From positions 43,946 through 107,945 of the forward strand of contig MHBK01000045.1 of the NCBI GenBank assembly GCA_001804865.1: 64,000 bases of DNA, written 5' to 3'. This document shows positions 15,363 to 38,900 of this stretch, piece by piece. Both the position numbers and the translations under genes were made by a program. This stretch comes from Lentisphaerae bacterium GWF2_57_35 (GTDB lineage: Bacteria; Verrucomicrobiota; Kiritimatiellia; CAIQIC01; GWF2-57-35). The number at the start of each line of letters is the position of its first letter. Positions within the stretch are counted from its first letter, which is position 1. The notes under the pieces were generated by a model. The model worked only from the letters and a program-made list of their open reading frames with translations. It made no database searches and was not told the DNA's origin.

Positions 15363-15767
15363 CTATTCGAGCTTCACCTTTCCCGGCTCACCCGGAGGAG
15401 GCTCCTCTTTGACGGGTTTCGGCTCGAAACGATTGCAGGTGTCGGTGGCCTCCACTTCCTTTTTGTGCAAGGCGCACCACTGCATGAAGGGATTAACCAC
15501 GTAATTGACGCAATGACGGCAGAGGCGTTCCGCTTCGCCTTCATGGAAAACCTTGACAGGCGCCGGACGATCCGCTTCGGTAAAAACGCGGAGAACTTCC
15601 TTTTCCTTGAAAGGAACCTCCTCCTCCCCGGCAAATTCGTGGCCGCAAGCCGCACAGGCAAAGGAATCGCCGATGCGGGTAAATCCGTCGTATTTCGGGT
15701 TGCGAATTACAAACGTATCGGCGCCACAAACGGTGCAAAGTATATCGACTGATTTCCGTTCATTCAT
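15363..15767 (-). CDS. zinc-ribbon protein (two CxxC...CxxC clusters), function unknown
   Basis: 134 aa. First cluster CTVCG...CAACGH; second CRHC...C...C. Acidic/Pro-rich tail. Lies tail-to-tail with the DUF2851 gene. Confidence 0.5.
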   Translation of the reverse strand: MNERKSVDILCTVCGADTFVIRNPKYDGFTRIGDSFACAACGHEFAGEEEVPFKEKEVLRVFTEADRPAPVKVFHEGEAERLCRHCVNYVVNPFMQWCALHKKEVEATDTCNRFEPKPVKEEPPPGEPGKVKLE

Positions 15768-15858
15768 CGTATGGCCATTTGCCAGTTATAATAAACTCTG
15801 CTTTTATACGAAAAAAAAGAAAATATGCGCAAGAAAAGGGGTATGCATAGTCTCTACC

Positions 15859-17442
15859 ATGTATGAAAAGACAAAGCGCCATTCTGAAACGACCTTTTTC
15901 ACCGGCATCACCCGAGGGCAATGGACCGGCTATATACTGCTCGGCGCCGCCATTTTTCTGTTGTTTTTCTTCGTTTATGTTCAAGCTCGGCGCTCCTTGA
16001 TCAATGAAATCAGGCATCATGTCATGGGCGTCGCGGCCGCATCCGCCGCCGGACTCGATGCCCGGCTGATCCAACAAGTATGGAGTCCTGCCGACGTTTC
16101 CACACCCGCCTATCGAAGCCTCCAGGAGCGGCTGGACCGCATAGCCTTAAACACGCCGGACATCCGATACATTTACACCATGAGGCGCAGTCTGAAGGAT
16201 CAAGCCTTGTCCACGGATTACGAGTATGTAGTGGACGCCAGCGCGCGCGATCGCAACAACAATCAAGAGATCGACCCGGACGAAATCTGCGAACCGCCCG
16301 GCAAGGATTACAGCGCCCAAGACCTGCCGGAACTTGTAAGGGCGTGGTACACCCCGGCCGCCGACCGATCCATCAGCGCCGATCCTCCCTATCCCGATTT
16401 GATTTCCGGCTATGCGCCCATTCGAAATCACTTGGACCAAACGGTCGCCATTGTCGGGGTCGATATCACCGCCTCCACCGTACAAGCCAAACTGCTGGCT
16501 CTTCAAAGCGCTTTGTGGGCCGTATGGCTCATCGTGACCCTGTTGATCGTGATGCTGTTGCAGCTATACTATCGGCAACAGGAGGCGCTCGAACAGATCA
16601 AGAGTCTCAGTCAGGATCTAACCGAACGCAATGAAACGCTGCGTGCGGCCAATCTCGATCTCGCCGAATCCAACGAGCGATTCACCAAGGACATTCGTCT
16701 CGCCCAATCCATGCAGCTCCGCCTCATGCCGCGCAGTTTTCCGCACCAGGATAAGATCCGCTTTGACAAGCTTTACCTGGCCGGCGACTTGCCCGGCGGA
16801 GATTTCTTCGATGTCTTTGCGTTGGACGACCGGCACTTGGCTTTGTTCATGGCCGATGTATCCGGTCACGGCATGTCGACCGCCCTGGTGTCCGGTCTGC
16901 TCAAAGCCGCCTTTTCGGCAGCGCGCGAGAAGTCCGACAGCATCCCGATTTCTTTTCATGCCGATCTATGGACTCCTGGCGCCGTCTTGGCTGCCTTAAA
17001 TGAAATGCTGATCAAGGAGATTCCCGAGTATGAATTCATCACGATGATTTATGCCGTGATTCAATTGGACTCCTCGACCGTTCGTATGGCCCGGGCCGGA
17101 CATCCCGCTCCCATTCATTTCTCTGCAAAAGACGGCGTCGCCCGCTTGTGGGACATCCCCGCAGGCGCTGCCTTAGGCCTGATCGCCAAAAGAGACTATC
17201 CCGCCGTGGAGTATATCGCGCAATCCGGCGACAAGATGGTTTTTTTCACGGATGGGCTTCCCGGCGCGCTCAACGAAGCCGGCGAAGCCTTTGGCGAAGA
17301 GCGCCTGCTGGACCTGGTTCAACGAAACGGCTCGCAACCCACGGATCAAATCATCGCCGCTCTGAACCAAGCCATCGAAGGCCATCGGGGCTCTTGCGCC
17401 GTCAGCGACGATTACACGCTGTTGATCGCCGAGATTTGTTGA
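15859..17442 (+). CDS. membrane sensor PP2C-type Ser/Thr phosphatase (SpoIIE/RsbU family) with periplasmic Cache-like domain
   Basis: TM1 GYILLGAAIFLLFFFVYV, a ~270-aa extracytoplasmic region, TM2 LWAVWLIVTLLIVMLL, a coiled coil, then the PP2C core (GDFFDVFALDD...MADVSGHGMSTAL...FFTDGL). The ORF-track start at 15553 is unlikely because of the AT-rich promoter-like region at 15770-15858. Confidence 0.85.
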   Translation: MYEKTKRHSETTFFTGITRGQWTGYILLGAAIFLLFFFVYVQARRSLINEIRHHVMGVAAASAAGLDARLIQQVWSPADVSTPAYRSLQERLDRIALNTPDIRYIYTMRRSLKDQALSTDYEYVVDASARDRNNNQEIDPDEICEPPGKDYSAQDLPELVRAWYTPAADRSISADPPYPDLISGYAPIRNHLDQTVAIVGVDITASTVQAKLLALQSALWAVWLIVTLLIVMLLQLYYRQQEALEQIKSLSQDLTERNETLRAANLDLAESNERFTKDIRLAQSMQLRLMPRSFPHQDKIRFDKLYLAGDLPGGDFFDVFALDDRHLALFMADVSGHGMSTALVSGLLKAAFSAAREKSDSIPISFHADLWTPGAVLAALNEMLIKEIPEYEFITMIYAVIQLDSSTVRMARAGHPAPIHFSAKDGVARLWDIPAGAALGLIAKRDYPAVEYIAQSGDKMVFFTDGLPGALNEAGEAFGEERLLDLVQRNGSQPTDQIIAALNQAIEGHRGSCAVSDDYTLLIAEIC

Positions 17443-19890: not shown

Positions 19891-20871
19891 ATGCCGATCG
19901 ATGGCTCAGGCCGATCCGTTCGCTATCTCCGCATCTCCCTGACCGATGCGTGCAATCTGAGCTGCCGGTACTGCATGCCGGACCAGATCGCATTCCGGCC
20001 CGCCCGGGAATTGATGACCAACGAAGAGGTGTTGCGACTGATCCAGCAATTTGCCGCGGTGGGCTTTGAAAAAATCCGGTTTACGGGCGGCGAACCGACT
20101 TTGCGGGACAACCTGTTGGGGTTGATCCAAAGCACTCGGGAGCTTGACGGCATACGGGAGGTCGTTCTCACCACCAACGGCTTGCTGCTCAAGGAGCTGG
20201 CCCGGCCGCTCGTTCATGCGGGGCTGCAACGGGTCAACATCAACCTGAATACGCTTCAGCCCAGGGTCTACCGCCGGATCACCCGCGGCGGACGCTTCAA
20301 GGAGGCCTGGGAAGGACTGCTGGCCGCCGACCGCGAGGGACTTCAAATCAAGATCAATTCCGTCATCCTGCGCGGCTACAATGACGGCAAAGACCCGGCG
20401 GAATTGGCGCGCCTTACCTTGACTCGCCCCTGGGACGTAAGATTCATCGAAGCCATGCCTTTGGGCAGCGTCGCGAGCTTCCAACAGTCGTCCCGTGTCA
20501 GCGAATCCAAAGTGCGCCGGATGGTCGTCCAGGCGCTGGGCCCCTTAACGCCCGTTCGAGACAGCCGCTCCGGCGGCCAGGTCCGCTTGTATCGCCTCCA
20601 AGGAGCGTCCGGCCGCGTGGGATTCATCAGTTCGGTAGCGCATCCCTTCTGCGATAAATGCACCCGCGCCCGCCTGACGGCCGACGGCAAAATGCGTCTT
20701 TGCCTTCTTCAGGAGGATGAAATCGATCTGCTGACCCCTCTTCGCGAAGGCGCGACGGACAAGGCCCTGCGAGAGCTGATCCGAAAAGGGCTGAAACGCA
20801 AGCCAGCCGGTCACGATCTCGCGCATCGAAAAACCCCAAGGAATCGGGTCATGTCTGAGATCGGCGGATGA
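19891..20871 (+). CDS. moaA: GTP 3',8-cyclase MoaA (radical SAM, molybdenum cofactor biosynthesis)
   Basis: YLRISLTDACNLSCRYCMP (CxxxCxxC radical-SAM cluster), GGEPTL, and a C-terminal CDKCTRARLTADGKMRLC second-cluster motif. Confidence 0.95.
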   Translation: MPIDGSGRSVRYLRISLTDACNLSCRYCMPDQIAFRPARELMTNEEVLRLIQQFAAVGFEKIRFTGGEPTLRDNLLGLIQSTRELDGIREVVLTTNGLLLKELARPLVHAGLQRVNINLNTLQPRVYRRITRGGRFKEAWEGLLAADREGLQIKINSVILRGYNDGKDPAELARLTLTRPWDVRFIEAMPLGSVASFQQSSRVSESKVRRMVVQALGPLTPVRDSRSGGQVRLYRLQGASGRVGFISSVAHPFCDKCTRARLTADGKMRLCLLQEDEIDLLTPLREGATDKALRELIRKGLKRKPAGHDLAHRKTPRNRVMSEIGG

Positions 20872-20937: not shown

Positions 20938-23900
20938 CTACGGGCTCATGAAGCGGGTCGGCAGCGTATAGATCAATTTGTTCGTCCAGACCCAGTCGTT
21001 GGTGTGCGTCGCAGCGATCACGATGCCGTCGTCCGGCGTGAAGCAATTATACCCCACGATGGCCCCGTTAACGCCAGACGCCTCGCGCCAGGTCATGTCG
21101 GAGGTCTTATACCAGATCCCGGCGCCGCTGACCTGTTGATTGGCCCGGTCGTATTTCAGGAGCTTATCCGAATGGCTCGGGCGCAGGCCGCCCTTGAAAC
21201 CGGACTCGAGCAAGTTCATCTGGCTGGGATGGACATTCCTGGGCAGCCCGAACGAGACCAGATTATACGCGGGACTGGCCATCGTACCGCCCTTGATCAA
21301 CTGCTCTTGCGTGTTGGTGGGAATGCGCCCAATAAACAAGGAGGTCTGGGCCGTTGCGTCTTCGGGAATTTCGATCACGACGCCTTCGTTCAGCGGCACC
21401 AGCATGTCGTCCGCATTTTCATCCCCGGATTGCCACTGCAAGGGCGACGACGACAACCAGATGGTCTGCGTCGCCGTTGCGATCGAACCCCGTTTGTGCC
21501 AGGAAACGCGCGTCGAGAGCAATTCGCTCTCGCCGCTGGGCAAATTATGCCCAAACACCCGAAACGCCGTGCAGGTGTCGGGAACGCCCGGGAAAGACAC
21601 CCAATTGAACCCGGGTTTCAAATGAATTGCTTTGAGCGCATAGATGCCTTCGCTGGCCACCCGGCGCCATTGGTTGGTCATCCACCGGTCTTTCTGGGCC
21701 GCGCGGTAAAAGCGCATATTGTTGCCCAGCATCCGCGGCGGCGAGCGGCCCGCGTCGACATCTCCCGTGTCGCAGAGCATACAGGTCACTCCGCGTCCCG
21801 CCAACTGCCATCGATTGCTCAAGGCCGCCGAGAAATCCGACGCATCCGTGTAAATCAAGTCGTACTCGCGCCCTTCCGCGGCCGTCCAGGCGATCTCGGC
21901 CCGGCCCAGATCCGTGGTGGCCACCGCGACGCCCTGCGTCACGAAGAAGCCCGAGAGCAGCACATTGTGCGGGTCGGACATCGGGCCTTCGTTGCCGGCC
22001 GCATCGACGCCGGCAATGGCCACATTATAATCTATGCCGAAGACGAAGTTGCTCAACGTGATCGCCTCGGTCAGCCGGTTGCTCAATGCGGGATTGTCCT
22101 CGAACGTGAAATGCGGGCTGTTCGTGGTCGGAGCCGTGTTGTCGTCGGTGTAATAAATCTTGTAGGACCGCCAGGGCGAGAGCGGATCGGCGCCGACGCC
22201 CCCGCCGTTGTTCGGCCGGCTCCACGTCAGATCGATTTCGGAGGTGTCGTCGAACGAGCCGGGCGCGACGACCACATTCATGATTTGCGTGGGCGCCACG
22301 CCGTCGTACATGATGACGAAGTTGGTGTTCGGGCTCTTCAGGCGGTCGCTCAACCGGTCGTCGTCGTCGTCCACCGCAAAGAACCAATTCGTCGTGATGC
22401 CGTTGGGGGCATTGGTGTAGATGACCCCGCCGATGCTCTGCACGGAGACGGTGACGGACAGATGGTCCCAGTAGCCGGTCGAAGGCATCTGCGAGTTATG
22501 CCCGCTGATGCCGCAACTCAGGCGGATGAACTCGGTGTCGGCCGTGGCATTGGTCACGGTCATGAGGGCCTGCGTCCAGACCGCCGCGTTCACGCCCACC
22601 AGCGGCGAGCCGTTATGATCGTCGTCCCATTCGTTCTCCACGATCCACGTCCGGACCGAAATGGCGTTGAAGCCTTCCGCCTTCAGGAAGCCGGCGGCGT
22701 AGTTGTTGCCGACTCCGACCCGGCTCAAGTCGCCCTTGAACCAACCGCTGAAGGAAATGAAGGGCCGCAGCCGATTGGAGTTGTTCAGATAGATATCCTG
22801 GGAGCAGAGGGTATAGCGCGGGGAGCCATCCGCCCGCGTGCCGGCCGCGATGATATGCCGCGTGGCCAGCGTCCCCTCCTGACCGCCCGCCTCGTCGGCA
22901 AAGTTCAGATAGCCTCCATCCGAGACAAACGATCTCCAGTTATTGACGGAGTCCGGATCGGCGGGAATGCTCAATTCGTCGGAGCCCACCTCAAAGCTGG
23001 CGTTGCTGATCAGGGTGGGCAGATAATTGGTTACATACGTCGCCGCCAGCGGCTCGCCGTCGATCGTCAGCGAGGGCTCGGCCGTGTTGGTCGACACGCG
23101 ATATTCCGAAATGCCCGACGCATCCAGGGACGGATCGAACGCCAGCACGAAGTGATTCACGTTGGTCCATCCATACGGCGTCATGACGATATTCGACGGC
23201 GTCGTGGGCTCGACGACATCGTCGTCAACGACCAGGAACGTGTTGGTGCTGTAAAGAATATTCGTGCTGTTCAGCGTCTGCAGCCGGTCGCTGGCGCGAT
23301 CGCTGTCCTTGTCGGTGGCAGACCATACGAACGAATACAGGCCGGTCGTCACATCCGCATAGCCCACGCCGGGCGCAGCGCGCCCGACGGTCCAAATGTT
23401 GCTCGCCCCCACCCGGTCGGTATAGGTCCAGCCCACGGCCGTGTGAACCATCGCGCCCACCGCATTGATCAGGCTGTAGTTGGCCGCGAAGTATTCGCCT
23501 TCGGTGGAGAGCGCCACTTCGCTCTCGTCCGCCAGCACCATGTTGATGTTCCACAACCCGAACCGGATGTCGCTGTCGGTCATCTGCTGGCCATTCTTGA
23601 TGTGCAATTCGCTGGCCGCGGGGGCGTTGGTGTCGTCGTCGATAATCCGCAGATAGCCGTACTGCTTATTGGTCGCGACCAGATAATCGCCGGCCCGATC
23701 GTTATCGGCGTCGTACAGCGTCGCCAGAATCCGCATGGGACCGGCCGCGATCAGGTCGTTAATCTCGGCTCCGCTCAGGGTCCACTTCCAGACGCTGGCG
23801 GCGCCGTCGCTCGTCGAGTCGGCGGTGCTGTCCGCAGCCGAGTAGTTGGCCACATTGTTTGCGGCGAAGCCTTCCACCGTCACGTTCATTTGCGTGGTCG

Positions 23901-26900
23901 CGCTCGACGCGCCCCGGGCCAGGCCGCTGTCGGGATCGTAGCCGCCGAAAAGCAAACTCAGCGAATTTGTGCCCAACTGCGAATCGAAGATCGTGAAGAC
24001 CGCGTTGGTGGACGCGTCGCTGGCCTCGATATACACCTCTCCGACTTTGACGGCCAGCGGAGGCGTCGGCCCGAACATGACGTCGTCAATCTGCAAGCCG
24101 CCGCCCTGGGCCGTGCCCGCGGAGCCCATGCCGCTGGCGGCGACGACGAGCCGCGCCCAGGCCGTGCCCACCGGCGAGGTCTTGGACAGGGAGACCTGCG
24201 TCCAGACCTCTCCGGGCGGCGTGAAGGATTGGGCCGCCGAGTCGATCATCGTGAACCCCGCGTCGAAGAACTCGATCTTCACCTCGCAGACCACCGCGGT
24301 AAACACATAAAGCCCGGGCCCGCCGCCCACCCCGTTGTCGCTCCAGAACCAGGCGGAGCCGTTCCACAGCGTTCCGTCCGGCGAGGTGTTGGCCGCTTGC
24401 TGCCAGATTCCGGCATTCGTTCCCGGCGACCAGGCGTTCAAAGACATTTCATAGGCGCCGCTGCGGGCGCGCCAGTTCTCGCGCGTGGCCGTGCCCCACC
24501 AATTGCCGCTTTCGTCCGGGAAGCCGTAATCCCAGCCGTAGGCTTTATACGCGGTCCCGCCCATCAGCTCGAAGCTGGAATTTTTCAGGCGCGTGCCGCC
24601 GCAGGAGCCCACCACGGGGGCGCTCGCGTCGTCGTCGCTGACCGCCAGCCAGCCGGCCTCCAGCACGGCGGAGGCCTGGTCCAGGTTGCGGTCGTTGTCC
24701 GCGTCGTAGACCGCCAGCGTGATCTGGTTGCTCTGCACGGGAAGCACGGAGAGCAACTCGCCGACCTGGTCGTAGGTGAAGGAGGTGTACACCCAGGTGC
24801 TCGTCGGACTGAGCAGGGCGTCCTTCGTGTGCTCGTAGGGGGAACTCCAGTCGACGGAACCCCGGAAGTTCGCCGTGTTGTTGGTGATCGTCGCGCCCAC
24901 GCTCATATGCGTGTTGGTGAGGGTGTGCCCGTTGACGTTGGCGGTGAAGGTCGTGCCCCGCTGCAAGCCCAGGATGTTGTCGCGGCCCAGGTCGTAGGTA
25001 TGGAACCGGAACTGCAATAGGTTGGTCTCCGACACGCCGGCCAACTGGCCGTCGGTAATCTGGAAAATCTGGTTGGAGCTGACGATATTGGTTTGCGGCG
25101 TCGGCGGAATCCACAGGCTGGACGCCGCGGTCTGCAGGCTTGTCCCGCCCAGCCACACCAGCAGCGAGGCGTTGGTGTTGCGCAACGTCTGCAAGGCCGG
25201 CGCGGTCGGATCGTTGTCGCGCCAGGCGATATAGCCCAGCTGCCAATCCGTCCGGCCCAGGCTGTCGTCGGGCCGGTCCGTGTCCCGGTCCGTCACCGAA
25301 ATGCTCACCCGGCTGGTCGTCTCCATCAACGCGGCAATTTGCACGTCCGAGAAGCTGGCAAACGCCCAGACGCTGGTGGCAAACAGGTTGTTGGCGTTGT
25401 CGAGCGAACTGCGGCCGGCATTATAGTTCGCATAGTTGTCCGTCACGTAATTTTCGACGCTGACGGTCATGTTCGAGCCGCCCGTCTCGCTGCTGAGGGC
25501 GCAGCCGCTCAAGTCGTAGAGGTTGAAGTGCAGTTCCACGTTCGTCGTGGCGGCATGGACCATGTGCTTGTCCGTCACGTACCAGACGCGATTGCTCTGC
25601 GAGCCGGCGCCTTGCGGAAAATCGTCGCCGACGAAGGGCGCCATCGCGCCGAACAAGTGCGCGCTGCCCGAGAGATTCGTCAGAAATTGGAAGGCAGTTC
25701 CGTACCGCGGTTCGGAAAGATCGTCGTCGAAGACCGTAAAGGACAACGGCACGTTGGTGGACTGTTCATCGCCAGGCCGATCCCAGTCGTTATCCGTAAC
25801 GGAGACCGAGCCGGTATAGGATCCCAAAGCGATGGCCGCGCGATTCACCGCCGGCAGTGCGACGGCCAACGGCATGGCCGTTTGCCCCTGCCCGTTGACG
25901 GTGGGCCCTGTCGTGAAGGCTTGGTTCGTGAAAAGTTGCGACCCGTCGGGGAAGAAGATGTTCACCCGAGGCCCCAAGGGTTCGCTAATCGACAGCAGCC
26001 CATTGCCCACATCCCGCACCAAGCCGGTGATGACACAGGTCCCCTCGGCCAAGTCGCCGTCCCCTATATAGCCCAAGCCTTTGATGGGACCAACCGTTCC
26101 TTGAAAACGCACGTTATCAATGGTCCATGGCCACTCGGCCGCGGCGTCGGCTATTCCGGCAAGACGCCATGTAGAATTTCCCGTAAAAGGAGCAGAGTCG
26201 AGGGGCTTGTTCATCGTCGCCCACAAGTCGTTGGTTGCCAGGCGAACAGGAGGATTAGTATCGACGAGAAATGCTAATCCTACTCTGAATGACCATAAAT
26301 CTACGATGGGAGTGTGATAGTCAAAAGAGACATTGGTTAAGTTCAGAGAGAACCCGGCATCCATCGCAAAGCGTCCCATAAAATAGGAAACTCCTCCTCC
26401 CCAATGCATCCACCCTGCCGAGGCTTGCGCTGCGCGACCGGGATTCCCGGCCACGCCAGTTAGGATGTCGGGAGCCCAGTCATGGAACCAAATCGGAGCG
26501 GGATCCAAGCGTTCCAACGCAAAGGTCGGGTTGGTCGTAAGCGTCTCGCTGCCGAAATCGTAAAACAGCAAGGTCCCCGACTTATACAAAGACGAACCGG
26601 ACACATCCAGCGACGAGATAACGGGCGCGGTCGTGTCGTCATCCGCAAAACTCAGCACGCCGAACTGTTGGTTGGATAAGGCCAACTGATCGGCCGGCCG
26701 ATCCGCGTCGGCATCGCGCACCGTAGCGACAATCTTGACGCTGCCCAGGGACAGCAAGGCGTTGATCTGATCCACGCTGAACGAATCGAATTCCCAAACG
26801 TTGGACGAGAGCACCGTCTTGGTTTCCTCGAAGGGACTGCTCTTGTTCGGGCAGAAATTCGCGACGTTATTCGTGCATAGGCCCTCGATGCTCAGATTCA

Positions 26901-29900
26901 TTTCCGCTGCAGGATCGGTCGTCCCGCGCAACAACCCGCTGCGTCCTCGATTGTCTGCGTCCAGAACACCTAGTCTGATGTGTAAGGGATTGGTGGATGC
27001 CACCCTGTACAAACTTTCATCAGACAGGTAAAAGATCGTGTTGGTAAACGTCTCCGTGCCGCGAATATACATCCCATCGACCGATGTAGGCACAGAAGAC
27101 GTGCCAATGCGGACATCGCACAAATCCACACTTTCCCCCACAAATGCATCGTCCCAGTAAATATAATAACCCTCAGGCCCTTCCAAGTGTGTTGGATAAT
27201 CCACAGAGTAACCAAAACAAGCCCGAACACTCTTCGTACCCGGAGGGGTATATATCGAATGAGTCAACCGCCGCCATGATGTAGTCACAATGGCCGAGAG
27301 ATCCACCTGGTTCGTAAGCAATTGATTGCCGTAATAGAGGTTGGTGCTGTCATAACATTCGAGTTTGAGATATGTGCACAGCCAGGAACACGGCGCCTCC
27401 TGGTTTCTCATGCTCATAATCGAAAACGTATACCATTTGCCCTCCGTTGCCGGGATGGGCCTCCAAATCGTTTCATAAGTCTCCGCTTCTGTATATATTC
27501 GCAAGCAATGCGCGCCCCCCCCAGGAGCCCCTCCTCCCTGCCATAGCACTCGACCTGTAGATGAGACCCAATTGGAACGCGTATGAACGGGATTGGTCGT
27601 ATAAAAGATGTCATTTATTTCAAACGATGGATTTATCAGCAGGTTCGTCGCATAGAAAGTCGGATAATTCGAATCGTCGTCAATCACATTGAACTGCAGC
27701 CAGTCGTTGAGCTGGAAGGCCCGGTCGAACGAGACTTGGTGCGCCAACCCATCGACCGTATCCCCGTAGACGCCGCGGTCGTTGTCGGCATCCTGTGAAC
27801 TGGTCTGAATCCGCCATACGCCTACCGTACGAGCTGCGAATGGAATCTGCACGTCAAACAAAGTGGTGGTCGCATACAACGATCCGTTGCCGGACAGGCT
27901 GTGAATATTCTCCGGCGAGACGAGCACGTCGGTCAATAAGTCCTCGCCGGCAGGGTTCACCAGGTCCCAGTTCAGATTGACGTTGCCGCCCGCACTGCTG
28001 TCCGCATTGGTGGCGTCGGCCACCTGATTGGTGAGAAACACGCCCGAGGGATCGAACGTCTGGTATACGATGTCAAGCCCGTCCGTCAGCGCATCGTCGT
28101 AGATGGTATTGGTATAGGTCTGGCCGGCGACGTAATTGGAGCCGGCATATATCAGCCAGGACCTGGGGCCGTTGGTGTCGTCGTCGACGACCTGCATCCG
28201 GCCGAATTGCCGGTTGACCATCCAGGCTTCATCGCCGGGCCGGTCCGCATCGGCGTCCGGGCCCGACACGCTGACAGGGAACTCTCCAGCCGTCAGCAAC
28301 TGGTGAATCTGGCCGGTCTCGGCGCCGGGCGCCGAAAGATAAGTTGCCGTGAAATAGACATGACTAAAAACGCTGGTAGCGGACGAGCCGGTGGTGTCGG
28401 CGGAACTCAGGTCCGCGCGGTAGGTGTTGTAGAGGTTCTGAAATTCGCCCAAGCCGCCCAGGTCGTAGTTCATCCATTCGCTGGCGGCGCTGCGTTGAAC
28501 GGAATTGGAGTCCCAGGCGGCGAAAACGAACTTGAACAAATCCGTCGACGCCGTCGCCGCCAGATCGCCGTCGGTGGCGACAAACAGCGCATTCGTGCCG
28601 CTGCCCGAAGTGTAGAAGCTGCGGCCGCGGTGCACGATGTCCATCGCGGCATTGGTCACCACGCGCAGGCAGGTCTGGTCGATGCTATAAGCGCCGGAAC
28701 CGCCCAGGCCTTCGGCATAGATGACCCACCGGATCCAGGCCGTGTTGGCCGGCGAGGTCGCCGTCATCGACGCCAAAGTCCACGTGGCGCCGGGATCGGC
28801 AAATTGATTGGTATAGGCGGCCAGTTGATTGACTCGGGTCCCGTCGTAGAACTCGATCTTGAGGCCATGACCCGTGTCCGTCGCATTATTGTATATCATG
28901 GCAGACGCTTCGAACACCGCCCCCGCCCCGCAGTTATTGGTCGCTTCCTGCCAGAAGCCGCCGGAATCCCCGGCGCCGGCCCATGTGCCGCAAAGCGCGC
29001 CCAATTGGTTGCCCCAGTCGGTCGGCCAGTCCCTGCGAGACGCGGAGCCCCACTTGCCGCCGTGCAGAAACGGCGACTCGCCATCGAACGAAGTGCCGAT
29101 CGTCTCCCAGTATTTGGGCGTCAAGGCATCGTTGATCGACTCCTCGAATCCGGGATTGCGCAAGAGGTTGCCGGGTTGAAGCGTTCCGGTTTCCGGGGGG
29201 AAAGGATCGTTATCCGTCACCTTCAACCACCCGACCATAAAGGCGCGCTCTATCTGGTCGCCCACTCGGTCGAAATCCGCGTCTCTCAAATAAATCCAGA
29301 CTTCGTTGCTGACGGCCGCGAGCAGATTATCCAAGGTGGCGGAACTCATACTCGTAAATTGCCAGGCATTGGTGGCATCCAGGCCGGTTGTCGTCGAGGA
29401 GCTATACGCCGCACGGAAATCGGTCACATTGCGATCCGTCACATTCTCTATCGAGATGGAGGTGTTGGTATCCGCATCCGTGGTTCCTCGAGCCAGACCG
29501 CTATACTCGTCATAGGCGGCAAAGACGAAACGCAAGGGGGTTGCTTCCGAAATTCCTACCAACTCGGCGTCCGACAGCTCGTAGACCAGCTTCCGAGCAT
29601 TCAACTGGACATTGTCAAAGATGTTGTGGCCACTGGTAGCCGCGCCCATGAGCGTACAACGAATGAAGACGGACGTGGCGCCGTTTAGCCGAGGGACGTT
29701 CGAAAAGTCGATCGTTTGAACCGACCAAGCTGTCTGGGTAGTGATCTCTTTGGGTATGGTCGTGTGGTGCGTAAAGTTGCTGCCGTCACAACTCCACGAC
29801 CATTGCTGATTGGTGGCGGCGCTTTCTGTACCCTTGAGCGCATAGCTCACCACCAAGTCCCGGTGCCCGCCCATGGATATTTCGAACTGGAAGTGCTTGT

Positions 29901-32900
29901 AGTTAATTGTATTACCGTATAGGCCAAACGCTTCGCCCAACACGTCGCTGCCTACCCGATTGAGGGTCGTTCCATTGTACCAGGCGATCGCGTCGCACGT
30001 ATACGTCATGCTGCCCACCCCGCGCGACAGCACCGTGTTCGAAGCGTTGAAATTCCAGTTGGCGATCAAGTTGGTGGCCAGGGCGTTGGTTCCGATGCGC
30101 ACGTTGCCGCGGTAAATGGCCAGGAGTTCGTCGCCCATCAAAGGCCTCGCATCGTCGTCGTCCTGCACATAAAACTGCAGGGTGGTGTTGACCGACAGCG
30201 CCCGGCGGTACGGCACGGCGTCCGCGCCGTTGGGCGCGTTGAAACTGCCGCCGTCGTCGTTGAGGTTTTCCGCCGTGACGGACAGATAGAAGGTATCGTT
30301 GACGACCGCGTTGGTGATGTTGAAGGCGCTGTGTACGTAGGTCGTCACGGTGTTTGCCCCGTTGGCGCCGACGAAATTGGTGAAGAAAGCGTCATAGCCG
30401 ATTTCCGTGGAGACCGAGCCGGCCTTCCGGATGGGGTCCCAATTCGGGCTGACCGGGCCGTTGCGCGAGCTGATGTTGAGCGCGCCGTTGGCGTTGGTCA
30501 CCCAAATGCCATAGACGTTTTCCCAGAGCACGGCGAAGTCCAGGGGTTCCGCTGTATTGTACAACTGTCCATCCGTGATCGTAATGTCCGTTAGAGAACC
30601 TTGCGGATTATTGGCGGCGACATAATTCGTGCCCACATACAGCAGCCGCGGGATCGGCCCTTGAATCATCGCGTCGGCTTGCGCTTCGCCTTCCCGGCGC
30701 GTCACTTCATACCAGTTGGTTCCAACGCGGACCTCGTCGAAGTAGACATTGCCGATCATATTGTCGTTGTCGCTATCCACGCCGCCCTTGAGCCGAATCC
30801 CCGTGATCCGGTCGATATGGCCTTCCTCCAGCGTCGTGGTCACATCCCAATAGCCGTTCGGCTCTTCCGCAACGCACTCATTCGTGGCGTAGACATTGGC
30901 GCTCAAGCGCCGTGTGTCAAAATCGTAGCAGCCAACGAACAGGTAATCGTGGCCGGTCCCGTTGGACACTTCGTGCGCGGAATTGGTATCCGGTGTGCCG
31001 CCCATCCAACGCAAGCCCATGACGGCGGCGCCGGGGACCTTGCCGATGAAGGCCTTCTCCTGATTGTTCGACATGAGGTACAACCCGGCGTAGGCGCTGT
31101 TGGCGCCGCCGGCATGGTCGAAATTCTGCATCCAGGAGAAGTAGACCTTGCCGCTGGTGAAGTTCGTCTCGAACGCGCGCGACGCGTAGTGACCGGAGCC
31201 ATTGACCGTCGCCACCAGCTTGATCTTGTGTCCCTGGGGCGTCGGACAGCTCCATTGGTTGGCCCCGAAGCTGCCGCTGTCGTAGATATGGTTGTCGTCG
31301 TTGTCGCATTGCCAGGTGTTGGCGCCCCACCCGTAGCCGCCGCCCTGCAGGTACAATCGCCCGCTCGCGCTGGGGAACCAGTCGTAAATGACCTTGCGAG
31401 GAGGGTTGCACACCCCTTCCCAACTGGTCGCAACGCGGATTTCGTCGAACTGCACATCGCCCACGGTCCCGCAGCCGCCGCTGGACCCGGCCTTGAGGCG
31501 CACGCCGTTGGCCGTGGTTAGATACCCCTCGGACAGGGTCCGGCTGACCGCCCAGGAAGGCTCGTTGGCCGGAACCTGGTTGGTGCGGTAGTAGGCGAGG
31601 GCGGAAAGTTCCCGGGTGCTGAAATTGTATTTCATGATCACCAGATACACATTGCCCGTGTCGCCGCCCGTGCCGGCGTTGGGCACCAACTCGTAATCGG
31701 CGGAGAGCGTTTGCGAGCTTTCGGCTTCCAGCCCAAACCGCGACTCCAGCGAGGCGTTCCACGGTTTGCCCACGAAGGCCTTGCTGTCGGCGTTGTTCAC
31801 CAGCTCGATGCCGGCCCATTTCTGCACGCCTTTGTACTGGTAGGTCATGAGCGCGCTGACATAGAGGCTGCCCCCGCTGACCGGCGCGAAATGCCGGACG
31901 GCCGACGATTCCGTCCCTTCGTCCGGCGCGCTGACGCGCACGCGATTGGCTCGGTTGGACGGATACCAGGGCATGTTCGGGAACCCGGGCGAGGCGCTCA
32001 GATTGGTGATGCTCCACGCGCCGTTGGCCACCGACCAGGCATCGGCCCAGTTGCCCGCGCTGTTCAAGCCGGCCAGGGAAACCCCGTTGGTATAGGCGAA
32101 GGGCTCGGTTACCACGGCGTCATAGGCGTCCAACGCGACCTGGCGGGGGAGGCCCGCGGAGTAGTAGGAAGAGACCACGGTGTAGAACATGTAGTAGTGC
32201 GTCTGGCCCGGCGCCACGACATGTTCGTAATTCGCAAAGCCTGACGCTCCGGTCCAAAGCACCTCGCCGCCGCCGCAAGCATCCCCAACCCCATAGGCCT
32301 GACCCGGCGTCGGCGCCGTCAAGGGAGCGCCTGCGCGATGAACGATCATCAGGTTGGTATACGTCGAATTCGGATTCCAAGTCAAACGGGTCAACTCGTT
32401 ACCGTCTCCGACCACCGACGCGGAGTTCGGTTCGGGTGGGGAGGTCAGCGTCAAAACGACCGCCGCCGTCCGCGGGCTGTTCGAAGCGGCGGCGTCCGTC
32501 ACGGTAATCAGGCCCGTGTACGAACCGGCAGCCATGCCCGAAACTTGATAGGAAACCGTGTGTTGTTGTCCGGCCAGCCGACTCAGGAGACCCGTGACCG
32601 GGCTGACCGTCAGCCAGGTTGCATTCGTGGTCACGGCGTACGAAAGCGTTCCATAGCCCACATTGGTTACCGCAAAACTTGAAGTCGGGACGGCAAGCCC
32701 CAGCATGCAGCTTTGAACGATCGAGGTGGGCATTTGAATGCCCGGCCAGTCGCCGACGCCCTGCAGGGCCAACGTGTATGGGCTCATGTCGGTCACATTG
32801 TTGGTGATGTAGAGCGTGGCCGAACGCGGGCCCACCGCCGAAGGATCGAACCGCACCTGGAAGGTGGTAGTGGAAGAGATCGCCACCGAGGCGGCTGGTT

Positions 32901-35900
32901 GCTCCGTCACCGTGAAGTCCGCGGCGTGAGCTCCCCCCATGGCCACGGCCGCCAGCGTCAGGGCCTCGTCGCCCTGGTTCGTGACCGTGAAGGTGCGCGT
33001 CAGCGAACCGCCGAGGTCCACATGCAAAGCGCCATAATCCGTGCCGTCCGCTTCAGAGGGCGTCGCGTCGCCGCGGAAAATGCTCGCGCCGTTCGTGCCC
33101 AGCACCATGATGTCGGGGCCGGTTCCCGGAGTATAATTCAGCACCAGATTGCTGCCGTCGAGCGCCAGACTGAACGTGCCGCCGCCCCGAGGCAGGGCCC
33201 AATACGTGAGATCCAACGCCAAGTTGTCGAGGGAAGAGACGCCGCCTTGGATGAGGATCCAACTGTAGCTTTGATTGCTGTCCCAATTCGACGCCGCCGA
33301 ACTGTCCGGATAAACCTTCACCGTGGCCGCGATCGAGGCCGCTCCGTCGTTGAGGATGAAGTCGCGGTCGGTCGCGTCCGTGCAATCCCCCAGCTTGAAC
33401 CGGAACGCCGAGCCGTTGTTCATGGTCAGCGAAGCCGCATGCAGGCAGCCGATATCTGTTGCGCTCGCGCCCGGCCATACCGTGCCGGACGCCGTCACGG
33501 CCGCCGCCTGACCCGCGCCCATCAGCGTGCCGCCGGCGGAGACCGTCACGGGCGCCACGATGTTCGTGCCGTTTTGAATCAGCGTGCCGGCCGTGATGGT
33601 CGTGCCGCCGCTGTTGGTGCTGGTTCCGCTTAGAATTAAGATGCCCGCGTCGATCTTGCTCACCGCGCCCGTGGACAGCCAACTGAGCGAACTCTCGATC
33701 CGGACGGTCCCATTGCCGCAGCTCTCGAGGTTGAATCCATAGCCGGTAATCGTGTTGGTCAGCGTCAGCATGTCCGCCTGGGAACCGATGCGCGTATGAG
33801 CCGTCAGAGCAATCGGGCCACTAAAAAGATTGTTGCCGAAGGCGTTGACCAGCGCTCCGATGTTCCCATATCCGTCACCTCGCAAGGTCAGCGGTTCCGG
33901 CAGCGTAACCATGCCTCCGCCCATTTTCAAACTGCAGCCATTCGTGACCACGGTCCCGGATGAGGTCAATCCCAGGGCGCTGGGATGAGTAAGGGTCAGG
34001 ACACCTCCCTTGATCGAGGTAATCCCCGAATAGTTATTGCTCCCCGAGAAAACAGCTTCACCAGCAGCTTCCTTCCACACCGCACCGGAACCGCTCAGAG
34101 GGCCTGCCAGGGTCCCCGGTTCTACCTGCCAAATGGAGAGGATCGAATTGTTCGTGATCCACCCCGGAAGGCCGCAGGTTCCACTGTAAAGAATGCCGGC
34201 TGAAACAATGGCGCCGCCTTCGTAAGTATTGGTTCCCAGGAACCACATCCAAGCCGTCCCTGCCTTACCCAATCCGCCATTGGTGATCGAATTTTTGATG
34301 GTTACATCTTTGGCAGCGGTTATCGTACGGAAACCGCCATGGAGATCGACCGGCCCGTTCAAGACCGTGACCCCGGGATTACTCCCGCCCAACTGGATGT
34401 TGCCATTAATCTGCACCGCCTTGTCGCAATTCAGTGCGGCCCCAGAACCCCGCGCCCGGTAGATGACGCCGTCTTCCAGGATCAAGACGCCGCCGACCGG
34501 CAAGGCAGCGGAGTCGTAGTGTCCTAAGCTGCCTTGAACAATATGAATGCTCCCTACCAGGGTGCTGTACCCGTAAATCTGCAGGTACCCCGCTCCGGTC
34601 TTGTAGATCGCGCCATCTCCATCCGTTTTGTAGGCATCGGCGATGACGGTCGCCGTTTCCATCGCAAAAGAGTTTTCCGAATTCAAATAGAGCGTGTGCC
34701 CATTCAAGTCGAACGATCCGCCATTCATATAGACCGTAACGCCGTCAACGCGAAACATGGCATTCGTGAAGAGAGAGACGTTTCCATACCAACGAGCCGC
34801 GTTGTTATTCGCAAGCCGGACGGCGCCTCGGTTCATGGTGTTTGTTCCATACACCAAAATCGACACAGGCCCCACGCCTGAATAAGCCGCGCCACTATTA
34901 AACAGCTCCAACTGGGCGTTCGTGCCAATATTTACCACATTCGGGCCATAGCCATTGGTATGGCAATAAAGGGTTCCTTCATCGACCCAAAGTCCCCCGG
35001 TATATGCACCGGGCTTCATCAGCCGCACCGGTCCCGCTCCCTGCTTCCTCAACCCGCCCGCTCCGCTGATGGGGGCTGACACGGTCAAGCTCTGCGCCGA
35101 GGCATTGCGCCACGCCTGGGTCGCGCCCAAAACTACATTGGCGCCGATCGTATGCGCAGCGCCGGCCCCCGAATCGACCACGATGCCCTGTTCGTTGATC
35201 GTCAGCGTATTGCTGCGGATGTTCAGCGCCGTATCGGCGTCGTCGTTGAACGTCAAGCCCGCCACCGTGCGATCGCCGTTAAGGTTGATGTTCGTGCCGG
35301 AAGCCAGACTCGCATAGAAAGCGGCATTCGACGAGGCGGCAGGCGTCACGTTGCCGATCCAATTCTCCGGGGTGTCCCACAACGAATTAACGCCTTCGCC
35401 GTCCCAGATCGCCTGAGCGGGCGGAGGGGGCGAAAAGACGAGCTTGAGACTTCCGGACTCTTCGATCATCGTGAACTGGCCGCCATCCAGGGACGAGGCG
35501 AAATCCGCGGTCGAGATGGAAAACTTGTTGCTGGCAAAGCCGCTGATGGAACCACTGGCGACCACCAGGGTATTCGTGTAACCAACCGTGGCGTCAAACA
35601 CGGGGCTGCCCTTCAAGGCAATCACAAAATCAGAACCGTCGACGGCATTGATGGCGACGGCCCCGCCGGCATCGAGCAGATCCCAATCCGCGCCGGCCGT
35701 GCCGGTCATGGAGGAAATATCCACCTGCAAGATGCCGTTGTTCTGCAAATTGACCGCGCCCGCCGTCAGCTTGCCGGCCGTATTGGACGCCCTGCCCGCG
35801 CTGACTTGGCCGGTAATCGTCAAATTTCCCACCCGCCCCACACCGTAGAGAAACGCGCCCCCATTGACCGTGACGGCCGAACTGGCGTTTGTGCCGTTTT

Positions 35901-38900
35901 GGATAAGCACGCCCCCGCCGACCGTCGTGGCGCCCGTATTCGTGCTTGTGCCGGTAAAAATCTGCGTGCTTTCTCCGAGTTTCATCAATCCAACGGAGCT
36001 GACCCCGTCCGCGATGACGCCGCTGAATGTCGTCGTGCCGCTGAGAGCGCTCAGCGTCAGGGTAACGGAAGCTGCTGTCGCGTTGTTGTTCACCACCCCA
36101 CCGCTGCCGCCGTAATCCGCCAACGAGGCCACCGTTTGGACGACGCCGTTCAGATCCAAGACGGCGCCGCCGGCAATCGAAACCGGAGTGTTGGTTGGAA
36201 GGCCATTAACTAATCTTAGGAACGAAATCAAAACATTGTCGATGCAGGAAGTTCTGTCCGCAACGTTGTTCGTTCCTAGAATGGTAATCGTGTGAGCACC
36301 GGCGTTGGCAAGGTATACGGTTCCCGTATACGATGACCAGGCTACGGAAGAGGGCGGCGCCCAGGCAAGGATTTCGCTTCCGTCCACCTGCAACTTCATC
36401 TGGTTTGGACCTAACCCGCCTCCACGCGAGACGGAGGAAAACGTGATGGCATATTGTCCGGGAGCGGACGACGTTACGACCTGAGAAATATTGCACGCCC
36501 GCTTGAAGAACGCTCCCTGTATCCCATCCGGTGCTGCAGGAGTATACCACGGAGACGAGTTTCTGGCGATGCCCGCCCATGCACTGCTGAATGTCCAACC
36601 ATACCCGACAGGCGCCACGGTTGTATAAAACGGGCTTGCAGTCTGTGGAGGAACCTCGAAACTGCTATTCGACACCGTGACGATCCCCACTTCACCGCCC
36701 AGCCGCAAGGTGCCGGCCTGGACCAGGGTCGCCCCCTCGTAGACGTTCGCGCTCAAGAGTTCCAGCACGCCTGAGCCCTGCTTGGTCAGCGAATGCGTGC
36801 CGGAGATCACCCCGCTGACCTTAAGAGCCGCCGTCGAGTCGTTGGTCCAACTCTGGTCCGAACCTAACGACACGTCGCTGGCGATGACATGCGCGCCGTC
36901 CGCGCCGGCGGCCATCGCGATGCCTTGTCCATTGATCGTCAGCGTATTGCTGGAAATGGTCACCGCCGAGTCTGCGTTGTCGTTGAAGGTCAAGCCCGCC
37001 ACAGTGCGGTCGCCATTGAGGTAGATGTTGGCGCCGGAAGCTATGCCGGTGTAAAACAAGATATTAGAGGAAGCCGGGGGAACCTCATCCCCCATCCAGT
37101 TCATAACCGTGTCCCACAAGGAGTCGGCGCCGCCGCCATCCCAGACGGCTTGCACAGTTTCAACATAAGGGGCGAAAACGATGCGGAGATTGCCTTCCGA
37201 CTCGTTAACGATAAAGGTTCCGCCATCCAGCGCCGGCGTAAACTCATCGGTGTCGATCGTGAACTTGTTGGTAGCAAAGCCGCTGTTGGAGGCGCTGCTG
37301 ATAATCGTGTTGGTATAGCCCACGCTGCTGTCAAACGTGGGATTGCCTTTCAAGGCGACGACAAAGTCGCTGCCGTCCGCGGCGTTGACCGCGATATCTC
37401 CGGTGGCGTCCACCAGATCCCAATCGGTTCCGGCCGTACCGGTCATGGCGGAGAGGTCGACTTGCAGGCGTCCGTTGTTTTGCAAATTCACGGCGGCCGC
37501 AACCAGATTGCCGACCGTATTGGAAGCGCTGCCCGCGCTGGCCTCTCCGGCGAGGGTGAGCGCTGCGACCTGGCCCGATCCATAAAGAAAAGCGCCGCTG
37601 TTGACGGTCACGGCCGAGTTGGCGTTGGTGCCGTTTTGAATCAGCGTGCCGGCGCTGACGGTCGTGTTGCCGCCGTGCGTGTTGGCGCCGGTGAGCGTCA
37701 GCGTACCCGTGCCCTGCTTGACCAATACCCCGCCCGCGCCGCTCATCACGCCGCCGAAGGCGGTCGAAGAATTATCCCCGCCGGCGGTCAGGGTCGAGTT
37801 GCCCATCGTGATCGATCCGTCGCCGGCGATGGAGCCGACCGTGTCGCTGCCGGCCGCCAGGTCCAACGTGGCGCCGCTGGAAACCGTCACGGCGCTGTTG
37901 TCCGAAAGACCGTTCGGGGCGGTCAGCTGAAGGAGGCCCTCGCTGATGGCGGTGGCGCCCGACCAGGTGCGCGTGGCGGACATGTTATTGAGCGTGAGCG
38001 TGCCGGGGCCGTCCTTGGTCAAGGTCGCGGCGCCCGTCGGAAGATCGCCCCAGATATCGACGGTTCCCGCGCCGCCCACGGTCAATCCGAGGCCGGCGCC
38101 GGAAATATCCGCATCGGCCCCCAGTTGCAGCGTCCCGCTGTCCGAGTTGATCCGCACGGCGCTACTCAAAGTAATGGGACCGGCAAAGGTGTTGTTCCCG
38201 CTGATGTTGCGTAGCGCGCCGCCGTTGCTCTGGCCGGCGCCGTCGAGCGTCAGCGATTCGTCGCCGGAGGGCGAGATGCCGCCGATCAACTCCAGCGCGG
38301 CGCCGCTGCGGACTTCGGTGTCGCCGTTGATCCACCCCAGGCCCCACTGATGGGCGATGCGCAAGACGCCGTTGGACACAATGGCGACGGAGTCGTAGTT
38401 GTTGAGGCCCGAGAGAATCAGCATCCCGACGCCGTCCTTGATCAAGCCGCCGTTGGAAATCTCGCCGCTGACGGTGTTGGTGTTGTCGCAACGAATCGTG
38501 CGCAGGCCGCCGCCCAGGCTGACGGCATTGGTCAGACTCAGCGCACCATTGTAAGAACTCGCCGCGCCCAACGTGATCTGGCCGTTGATCGTCATGGGCT
38601 TGCTCAGGGTGCGCCCGTCCGCTCCGTCGGACTGAATCGTCGTTCCGTCCGCCATGCTGAACGCGCCGCCGCCGCCCATCGTGCCCGTCGCGATTCGAAT
38701 CGTTCCCTGGTTGAGCGTAATCCCGCCGTCCAGCGAAGGGTCCGGACGAAGCGTGAAGACCGCCGAACCGGACTTGTGCAGGGCGCCGTCCCCGGCGGTC
38801 TTCGAGCCCGTCATGGCTCCGGCCGTCATGTAAACGTCAATCGTATTGGTGACATACAGGGTATACGCGCCCGCGGCCACCGCGCCTCTTGTATCCAGGC

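Follow-up and report, generated by a model that had tools for sequence, protein, structure and literature searches.

Tandem β-sandwich extenders come from widely differing sequence families, yet in all of them conserved Asp, Asn or Glu residues bind Ca2+ at the linkers and the array is rigidified in this way (PMC7493085; PMC5466336; PMC4083281). The protein described in this study resembles the giant-adhesin extenders covered there, namely SiiE BIg, MpIBP region II and MhLap/AhLap (PMC7493085; PMC5466336; PMC4083281), in that it exceeds 500 kDa, carries many tandem Ig-like modules, is strongly acidic, bears putative ligand-binding modules on its array and has conserved Asp-rich motifs at the predicted domain poles and in the linkers. 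Unlike those extenders, its Ig-like modules belong to a different sequence family with no match to BIg or any other Pfam domain, are 140-165 aa long, contain a helix and alternate one-to-one with jelly rolls instead of forming a uniform run. Moreover, it comes from a PVC-group host, lacks RTX repeats and a type I secretion signal, and carries PATR β-helix repeats at the N-terminus as well as a conserved C-terminal domain of its own.

The window, which is the whole stretch of 64,000 nucleotides analysed here, contains the host gene at positions 20938-39957 on the minus strand, encoding 6339 aa. The gene probably starts at Met41 (window 39837), followed by a signal-peptide-like segment, and the protein from Met41 on (P0003) has been deposited as a "hypothetical protein" (HBA84599.1 and OGV43578.1). 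From the N-terminus to the C-terminus, its domains are the PATR β-helix repeats (Pfam E 1e-30; TIGR02601 also matches), a choice-of-anchor-D/HYDIN Ig domain, BACON_2, a duplicated unknown module, the array, fn3 and the conserved C-terminal domain. The sequence-only reading had placed about 10 cadherin-like modules at 22300-29300, which corresponds to aa 3552-5885. We find that aa 3450-5900 of this secreted giant protein is a string of two alternating β-rich modules, which we call D and X. The array region is strongly acidic, with 191 D, 83 E, 29 K and 94 R (net -151), and has no Rfam match; the plus strand opposite the array carries long ORFs without a Pfam match. The features are as follows.

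30136..30657, minus strand: upstream divergent module, aa 3101-3274, ending QDDDDARP, without DxDxDR
29188..29601, minus strand: D copy 1, aa 3453-3590, DADFDR ... TDNDPFPP (HMM E 9e-44 and alignment)
28606..29187, minus strand: X copy, aa 3591-3784, CBM-like jelly roll (predicted), starting NLLRNPGFE (X profile E 8e-63)
28159..28605, minus strand: D copy 2, aa 3785-3933, DADADR ... VDDDTNGP (HMM E 5e-39)
27655..28131, minus strand: divergent D-like module, aa 3943-4101, DADNDR ... IDDDSNYP, the two motif starts being 37 residues apart (HMM match full-length but weak, E 4e-3)
27055..27654, minus strand: X copy, aa 4102-4301, starting NLLINPSFE (X profile E 2e-36)
26617..27054, minus strand: D copy 3, aa 4302-4447, DADADR ... 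ADDDTTAP (HMM E 9e-47)
25852..26616, minus strand: unclassified 255-aa insert, aa 4448-4702, ending in a jelly-roll-style strand, TIDNVRF
25702..25851, minus strand: tail-only D remnant, aa 4703-4752, DNDWDR ... FDDDLSEP (HMM positions 103-139 only, E 3e-5)
25192..25605, minus strand: D copy 4, aa 4785-4922, DRDTDR ... RDNDPTAP (HMM E 4e-40)
24610..25086, minus strand: D copy 5, aa 4958-5116, DADNDR ... SDDDASAP (HMM E 4e-39)
24019..24609, minus strand: X copy, aa 5117-5313, starting RLKNSSFE, used for the structure model
23614..24018, minus strand: D copy 6, aa 5314-5448, DADNDR ... IDDDTNAP (HMM E 6e-48), used for the AlphaFold model and fold searches
23200..23550, minus strand: divergent short D-like module, aa 5470-5586, DKDSDR ... 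VDDDVVEP (HMM positions 72-139, E 1e-5)
22423..23037, minus strand: candidate X-like jelly roll, aa 5641-5845, starting LISNASFE (weak: the motif and hhalign 21.7%, E 1e-3, C-terminal half)
22273..22422, minus strand: truncated tail, aa 5846-5895, DDDDDR and a degenerate YDGVAP linker
21967..22248, minus strand: fn3-like domain, aa 5904-5997 (Pfam fn3 E 8.6e-5; 23.1 bits, below the cut-off of 25)
20941..21966, minus strand: conserved C-terminal domain, aa 5998-6339 (BLAST to representative proteins)

The upstream module (aa 3101-3274) shares 28% identity with the module at aa 3934-4101 and is matched in BLAST by aa 3943-4101 (E 4e-9), and the unit that begins with the X copy at aa 3591-3784 is 30% identical to the X8-D8 unit over its full length. 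The 255-aa insert has no Pfam match and scores 0.4% in hhalign against the X profile, and it is not demonstrably X-like.

The motif DxDxDR occurs 10 times (aa 3559, 3901, 4056, 4415, 4722, 4890, 5085, 5416, 5549 and 5863) and nowhere in the protein outside aa 3559-5863. Nine of these motifs are followed 22-37 residues downstream by D[DN]Dx(2-4)P, with start-to-start offsets of 22-24 residues for seven pairs and of 29 and 37 residues for the other two; after the last, DDDDDR at aa 5863, the degenerate YDGVAP alone is found. Shuffling of the protein or of the region (2000 shuffles) yielded a mean of 0.04-0.05 DxDxDR motifs, a maximum of two and no pairs. The repeats and the pairing of their motifs are therefore far above chance, and the paired array of the sequence-only reading is real. 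All of the hexamers and linkers quoted in that reading are present in the protein, although it overlooked DNDWDR/FDDDLSEP (aa 4722/4744) and IDDDSNYP (aa 4093). Its repeat unit of 230-280 aa, by comparison, does not exist: the array is built from modules of about 140 aa and about 200 aa, and the distance between successive DxDxDR motifs is bimodal, 133-195 aa for a lone D and 307-359 aa for a D with an insert in front of it. The estimated 10 or so modules comprise six canonical D copies (HMM E 1e-39 to 1e-48) and four degenerate ones, which retain no more than a weak match or the C-terminal tail (E 1e-5 to 4e-3).

The D module measures about 140 aa, or about 165 aa with its conserved leader strand PLxVxIG...TNA. 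It matched nothing in Pfam, NCBIfam or PDB sequences and forms a distinct sequence family absent from public domain libraries. A profile search of 1.84 billion proteins recovered 217 representative proteins, nearly all giant; the genome matches were all uncultured-genome assemblies (MAGs), and 14 of 15 were labelled Verrucomicrobiota, Kiritimatiellia or Lentisphaerota. The positional conservation of the motifs on which the sequence-only reading depended is evident in the alignment of the six clear copies, where they fall in one column block, and equally across 327 D copies from 151 proteins. The near-invariant positions in the latter are D12, D32, S35, G36, R39, S68, W81, D108, D110, D112, R113, D116, G126, D132-D134 and P138; nine Asp, two Arg and the linker Pro are 85-100% conserved. 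More distant are the 80-120-aa tandem repeats of giant metagenomic proteins (P0091, P0107, P0111, P0125, P0127, P0136, P0137 and P0145), which also have D.SG[LI] after an early strand and, in many tandem copies, a tail consisting of an F strand, DxDxD[RW]xxD, a G strand and DDDxxxP. These repeats are much shorter than D, match its profile at positions ~98-140 only and lack its central part; they too are unclassified, with scattered sub-threshold Ig-like Pfam matches only.

The AlphaFold model of D copy 6 (pLDDT 93.6, pTM 0.85) predicts a seven-strand Ig-like β-sandwich with one helix (strands 8-12, 20-26, 46-49, 53-56, 75-81, 96-104 and 115-127; helix 84-93), that is, a two-sheet Greek-key sandwich that superposes on Ig-like domains. 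Because this fold is Ig-like, the similarity to cadherin/Ig-like folds that the sequence-only reading required is borne out by the model. In model numbering, D13 ends strand A, D29 follows strand B, D104-D112 lie in the F-G loop and D128-D130 follow strand G. Because the strands alternate, a matter of topology and not of coordinates, we deduce that the conserved Asp residues cluster at two poles. The Asp that follows strand B (YDxxSGLxRG) and the DxDxDRxxD motif of the F-G loop would lie at the pole where the chain enters, and the Asp that ends strand A (TD) would lie at the opposite pole together with the DDDxxxP linker that follows strand G. The D modules are not back-to-back, since each is followed by an X module or by a segment of 30-40 residues; therefore, a strict cadherin-type interdomain site is not guaranteed.

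Like a classical cadherin EC repeat, D is predicted to be a Greek-key β-sandwich in which strand A ends in an acidic residue, the B-C and F-G loops of the entering pole contain acidic residues, and strand G is followed by an acidic linker with a terminal Pro. However, the D family has no detectable homology to cadherins, its modules are not consistently back-to-back, and its length of about 140 aa exceeds the cadherin length of about 110. Neither Pfam Cadherin (PF00028) nor Calx-beta was matched in the whole protein, in single domains (E up to 10) or in 95 family members (E up to 1). With respect to the cadherin Ca2+ motifs, LDRE and DxNDN are missing (neither [LIVF]DRE nor D.NDN occurs in the protein) and the E-F segment (D profile columns 81-104) contains no conserved acidic residue, whereas the Asp ending strand A and the DDDxxxP linker are analogous but not identical. 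The D profile reached 2.6% probability in hhalign against E-cadherin EC2, a query checked against PDB Cadherin-1 (E 4e-149). The sole local match pairs the DAD of cadherin strand B with the strand-F motif of D, and therefore the motifs are not positionally equivalent. A Foldseek search of the PDB with the D model returned nothing at E 1e-3 or better. In the fold searches generic Ig domains scored above cadherins, and the D structure is no nearer to cadherin EC domains than to the remaining Ig-like folds. We consider "cadherin-like" to be valid as an analogy only and not as a statement of family membership.

The X module is about 200 aa long and starts NLLxNPxFE; the array contains three clear copies and one weak copy, and N.[GS]FE occurs there at aa 3601, 4109, 5126 and 5652 and once outside, at aa 1097. 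Its modelled structure superposes on solved CBMs and points to a β-jelly roll of the CBM4/16/22/61 type. Jelly-roll CBMs (CBM4/9, CBM16, CBM22, CBM61 and related) typically share the features seen in X, an N-P-x-F-E first strand and a last strand containing DD, with a conserved Asp. X differs from them in having only 12-20% identity to CBM structures and extra loops within its ~200 aa, its segments match no CBM family or other model in Pfam and NCBIfam, and its glycan binding is putative. The super-repeat of CBM-like and Ig-like modules that had been proposed recurs across the family, with 90 X-D junctions in relatives beside 80 D-D and 46 D-X junctions.

We consider the D/X array to be a Ca2+-stiffened rod that presents putative glycan-binding X modules and is held at the envelope, a reading to which we give a probability of roughly 0.55; Ca2+ binding and a stalk role are plausible for the array. 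According to this model, extracellular Ca2+ would be chelated by the linkers and by both acidic poles of every D module, and neighbouring modules would thereby be locked into a stiff rod that resists proteases. Such a rod would keep several X modules apart and display them, together with the N-terminal PATR β-helix, away from the cell, and the protein would be attached to the envelope by its conserved C-terminal domain. The motif DxDxDRxxD has Asp at positions 1, 3, 5 and 9, as does the canonical calcium loop xDxDxDGxxD given in the abstract of PMC10536834, and D108, D110 and D112 are 94-98% conserved. However, position 6 is Arg in 306 of the 327 copies, whereas Gly occupies this position in all metal-binding Dx[DN]xDG examples surveyed in PMC3123361. 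The invariant R39 and R113 could also neutralise part of the acidic cluster through salt bridges and not through metal.

The candidate for anchoring or sorting is the C-terminal domain, which at least 70 further D-domain proteins also carry, at their C-terminus or a few residues from it; neither Pfam nor PDB sequences gave a match to the last 349 aa (aa 5991-6339). Among known export and anchor signatures, no autotransporter barrel, RTX repeats or PEP-CTERM was found. The PATR repeats are thus present without the C-terminal β-barrel translocator of a type V autotransporter, and one isolated GGVGAD, with no HemolysinCabind match and no type I secretion signal, does not make the protein an RTX type I adhesin.

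The D modules may instead be Ca2+-dependent, lectin-like ligand binders and not spacers, in which case the exposed, metal-bearing acidic F-G loop would contact sugars or mineral surfaces and the array would be a multivalent binder. Cadherin-like domains of Saccharophagus degradans have reportedly been described as carbohydrate-binding modules, long D-D-D runs that lack X occur in relatives, and the DxDxDRxxD and SGLxRG loops at one pole are more strongly conserved than the β-core, as expected for a functional site. We nevertheless regard this alternative as unlikely: the conserved pole would be partly buried by the neighbouring module because the preceding chain enters there, the same residues are near-invariant in every copy and species, which argues for a structural and not a specificity-determining role, and binding is already supplied by the CBM-like X modules. 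Somewhat less probable again is that the Asp residues are conserved without metal, with Asp-Arg salt bridges and N-capping involving R39 and R113 stabilising the long loops and the negative charge serving solubility or cell-surface repulsion. The Arg in place of the Gly that canonical calcium loops need (PMC3123361), the conservation of two Arg to the same degree as the Asp residues, and the high confidence that AlphaFold gives the loops without an ion are consistent with this explanation. However, nine conserved Asp against two Arg would leave a large uncompensated negative cluster at each pole, and extracellular tandem β-sandwich arrays whose Asp-rich linkers are conserved bound Ca2+ in every extender examined in PMC7493085. 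Finally, that D modules are divergent true cadherin repeats with the classical three-Ca2+ interdomain site is highly improbable on the profile, motif, length and fold evidence above, although an F strand ending xAxD precedes the G strand and acidic linker in both, CELSR1, protocadherin-15 and cadherin-23 recur among weak Foldseek matches (E 0.07-0.4), and the tail-sharing P0091 has a sub-threshold Pfam Cadherin match (20-23 bits).

The Ca2+-stiffened rod changes no general principle, since Ca2+-binding tandem β-sandwich stalks with binding modules are a well-known design. If the Arg-containing DxDxDR does bind Ca2+, the repertoire of calcium-loop geometries would be wider. More speculatively, and in our view doubtful, the D/X super-repeat and the C-terminal domain may define a PVC-restricted class of surface fibres, in which a Ca2+-stiffened rod carries many CBM-like heads that capture polysaccharide or prey surfaces, export and anchoring are unrelated to types I, V and IX, and DxDxDR is a new Gly-less calcium-loop geometry. 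Most giant surface proteins from uncultured Verrucomicrobiota, Kiritimatiellia and Lentisphaerota carry the annotation "hypothetical", as does the present protein, and defining the ~140-aa D module, the CBM-like X module and the shared C-terminal domain would allow the annotation of about 200 protein clusters of 2,000-8,000 aa. The array suggests that this group, which is known to degrade polysaccharides, has an apparatus for glycan capture or adhesion.

The whole array lies in a single ORF of 6339 codons on the minus strand (window 20938-39957), in which residue n falls at window position 39957-3(n-1), and window 22300-29300 corresponds to aa 3552-5885. The motif DxDxDR occurs 10 times between aa 3559 and aa 5863 and nowhere else in this giant protein, and for nine of the 10 copies a D[DN]Dx(2-4)P comes next, 22-24 residues further on in seven of them and 29 or 37 residues in the other two. 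Shuffled sequences are expected to contain 0.05 copies of DxDxDR and zero motif pairs. When the region was compared with itself by BLASTP as one sequence, the identity match alone was returned, but pieces cut at each linker proline and compared with each other did reveal repeats, with E values down to 4e-29 and identities of 24-36%. These motifs and repeats are real and well above chance. The repeat unit of 230-280 aa proposed in the sequence-only reading does not exist, since successive motifs lie either 133-195 aa or 307-359 aa apart. The two spacing classes arise because two different modules alternate, namely D, an acidic Ig-like domain of approximately 140 aa that ends in the motif pair, and X, a CBM-like jelly roll of approximately 200 aa.

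Modules of the array and its upstream relative (residues of the giant protein)
aa 3453-3590, 3785-3933, 4302-4447, 4785-4922, 4958-5116 and 5314-5448, minus strand: clear D copies, HMM E values 1e-39 to 1e-48
aa 3943-4101, 4703-4752, 5470-5586 and about 5846-5895, minus strand: four degenerate D copies
aa 3101-3274, minus strand: upstream relative of D that keeps the DDDD..P end only
aa 3591-3784, 4102-4301 and 5117-5313, minus strand: three clear X copies, starting with NLLxN[PS]xFE
aa 5652, minus strand: LISNASFE start of a fourth, weak X candidate
aa 3275-3452 and 4448-4702, minus strand: two unclassified inserts

The net charge of the array is -151. Near-invariant positions of X are L8, N10, F13 and E14 in the first strand, two tryptophans, and D175 in the last strand. 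The description of the N(P/S)(G/S)FE starts as CBM-like is supported at the level of the fold, though no Pfam CBM model matches, and Pfam searches of single X pieces with E values up to 10 returned nothing useful. Comparison of the X profile by hhalign with the two unclassified inserts (taken as aa 3275-3470 and aa 4448-4752) gave a negative result, though their last strands look jelly-roll-like. A further NSSFE (aa 1097-1101; window 36652-36666, minus strand) lies between two N-terminal PATR blocks and could mark another jelly-roll insert; its match to the X profile is weak (E 0.025).

An exhaustive search of 1.84 billion representative proteins with an HMM built from the six clear D copies of the window returned 217 proteins with E values of 1e-3 or lower, 90 of them with 1e-30 or lower. 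Almost all of these proteins are 1,000-8,000 aa long, with up to 16 D copies each. In contrast, a word-indexed protein search found one short fragment with a query of one adjacent X-D pair (aa 5117-5313 and 5314-5448) and none with a 95-sequence alignment, and this type of search is evidently blind to the family. Among 327 full-length D copies from 151 retrievable proteins, the near-invariant positions are D12 (98%), S68, W81 and G126, together with D32 (99.7%), S35, G36 and R39 of YDxxSGLxRG, D108, D110, D112, R113 and D116 of DxDxDRxxD, and D132, D133, D134 and P138 of DDDxxxP. The paired acidic motifs are therefore not only present far above shuffling but also positionally conserved, and they form the best conserved part of a wider signature. 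Because the relatives contain 90 X-D, 80 D-D and 46 D-X junctions, the proposed super-repeat of CBM-like and Ig-like modules holds as a trait of the family. Scanning the D consensus against one genome per species located 15 loci, all in MAGs (15/15), of which 14 bear a Verrucomicrobiota, Kiritimatiellia/Kiritimatiellae or Lentisphaerota label and one bears just "bacterium". No Pfam model matched D in the whole protein, in single copies (E up to 10) or in 95 members (E up to 1), and no NCBIfam model matched within the array. When the six-copy profile was run against the PDB, it aligned only with benzoylformate decarboxylase over 53 residues (E 0.002), which we regard as a chance match.

Some proteins in the D-profile search matched profile positions of about 98-140 only, many times each. 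These giant metagenomic proteins (representatives P0091, P0107, P0111, P0125, P0127, P0136, P0137 and P0145) have up to 22 matched stretches each and carry tandem repeats of 80-120 aa that share with D the motif D.SG[LI] and the tail, in which an F strand, DxDxD[RW]xxD, a G strand and DDDxxxP follow one another. Pfam gave them no single family identity but a sub-threshold scatter of Ig-like families (Y_Y_Y, Big_7, He_PIG, PKD and Cadherin, the last at 20 bits against a cut-off of 28.8). This scatter and the common tail indicate that the acidic tail belongs to a wider, uncurated group of Ig-like repeats in bacteria, which looks like a superfamily, and D is an enlarged version of these repeats.

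AlphaFold2, supplied with the 95-sequence alignment of D copies and the aa 5314-5448 region as the query, produced a model with seven strands and a single helix, which lies between long strands five and six (pLDDT 93.6, pTM 0.85). In the strand order of this model, D13 (profile D12) ends strand A, D29 (D32) lies just past strand B, D104, D106, D108 and D112 occupy the end of strand F and the F-G loop, and D128-130 lie past strand G. Because the strands alternate in direction, the chain would enter D at the pole that has the acids of the B end and the F-G loop, and would leave it at the pole that has the Asp of the A end and the DDD linker. This predicted two-pole placement resembles the general geometry of cadherins and other Ca2+-binding extenders, and the analogy is a reasonable one. 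One caveat on metal binding is that D modules are followed by X modules or by segments of 30-40 residues rather than directly by another sandwich; the segments contain a conserved PLxVxIG...TNA strand that is properly part of the next D.

One alternative to the spacer reading is that D itself could be a Ca2+-dependent binding unit. A second alternative is a metal-free Asp-Arg network. All of the surveyed Dx[DN]xDG calcium loops have Gly at position 6 (PMC3123361), whereas the DxDxDR loop of D has Arg there, and a part of the acids may be paired with the two invariant arginines of D. The reading of DxDxDRxxD as a thrombospondin type-3 or dockerin-like motif was rejected because the motif lies in a β-hairpin loop of the sandwich and lacks Gly. 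True homology of D to cadherins is largely refuted, since hhalign of the D profile against E-cadherin EC2, a query checked beforehand against PDB Cadherin-1 chains, gave a probability of 2.6%, its sole local match paired "TATDADDD" of cadherin strand B with "YDADNDR" of D strand F, positions that are consequently not equivalent, neither LDRE nor DxNDN occurs, and no acid is conserved in the E-F segment. D is an Ig-like β-sandwich with its own sequence family and not a demonstrable cadherin; the earlier term "cadherin-like" stands by analogy only.

Other features of the giant protein
N-terminal two-fifths, minus strand: PATR/autotransporter-type β-strand repeats (Pfam E 1e-30; TIGR02601)
between the PATR part and the duplicated module, minus strand: choice-of-anchor-D/HYDIN-type Ig domain, then BACON_2
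window 30781-31959 (aa 2666-2824 and 2905-3059), minus strand: duplicated unknown module of about 160 aa (32% identity, E 2e-17)
after the array, minus strand: fn3, sub-threshold in Pfam
window 20941-21987 (aa 5991-6339), minus strand: C-terminal domain of 349 aa, conserved in D-domain proteins

Both copies of the duplicated module, which lies just upstream of the array and has no Pfam match, end in FDE[IV]RV. At least 70 of the 151 D-domain proteins have the C-terminal domain at their very end or a few residues from it (29-73% identity). This domain matched nothing in Pfam or among PDB sequences, Pfam gave nothing useful for the upstream 675 aa either, and we consider the domain a candidate family-specific anchoring or export domain. 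The protein contains no RTX repeat block, no autotransporter barrel and no PEP-CTERM, and an RTX adhesin, a type V autotransporter and PEP-CTERM anchoring were each rejected.

Public copies of the protein include HBA84599.1 (6339 aa, "hypothetical protein", Verrucomicrobia bacterium MAG, contig DNKJ01000081.1), P0003 from JGI/ENA (6299 aa, beginning at Met41) and a cluster member from Lentisphaerae bacterium GWF2_57_35 (6267 aa, ≥ 90% identity). The start codon is ambiguous (aa 1-41; window 39835-39957, minus strand), the NCBI model beginning 40 codons upstream of the JGI/ENA Met41. After Met41 come first a basic and then a hydrophobic stretch (KCNLAVWGLLSWVALMGLPVAKG), and by inspection this segment resembles a signal peptide; only the Met41 start places it directly after the start.

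The surroundings are ordinary chromosome, with MoaA, MoeA, YchF, SpoIIE-type phosphatases and two more very large surface-type proteins.

Neighbouring features
window 40317-49148, minus strand: 2943-aa surface-type gene with GH42, TIG, MBG, a Rax2-type propeller and a HYDIN-like Ig domain
window 1176-8078, plus strand: 2300-aa surface-type gene with FG-GAP, DUF11 and a sub-domain Peptidase_C13 match
window 19891-20871: MoaA
window 49325-50653: MoeA
window 59835-63992, minus strand, and 15553-17442, plus strand: two SpoIIE-type PP2C phosphatases
window 21004-25020, 25093-26277 and 28207-29688, plus strand: antisense ORFs of 1338, 394 and 493 aa opposite the giant gene

D and X modules are absent from both of the other large surface-type genes. 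The large surface-type genes are interleaved with molybdenum-cofactor genes, and one phosphatase is fused to AAA_16, TPR and GAF and extends past the window end. The plus-strand ORFs opposite the region had no Pfam match, the region had no Rfam match, and the minus-strand reading is conserved in more than 150 relatives; most likely, these ORFs are not genes but stop-free frames antisense to a GC-rich gene.

The best-supported reading of the giant protein is a secreted, strongly acidic surface fibre, a localisation that we infer. In such a fibre, stiff spacing would be the role of the Ig-like D modules, with Ca2+ at the two acidic poles and the linkers probably stabilising them. The CBM-like X modules would provide multivalent glycan binding, and retention or export of the protein would fall to the family-specific C-terminal domain. 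A precedent for the proposed stalk is given by SiiE, MpIBP and Lap-type adhesins, whose extender regions are rigidified by Ca2+, and D is a new, uncurated domain family employed in an already known design.
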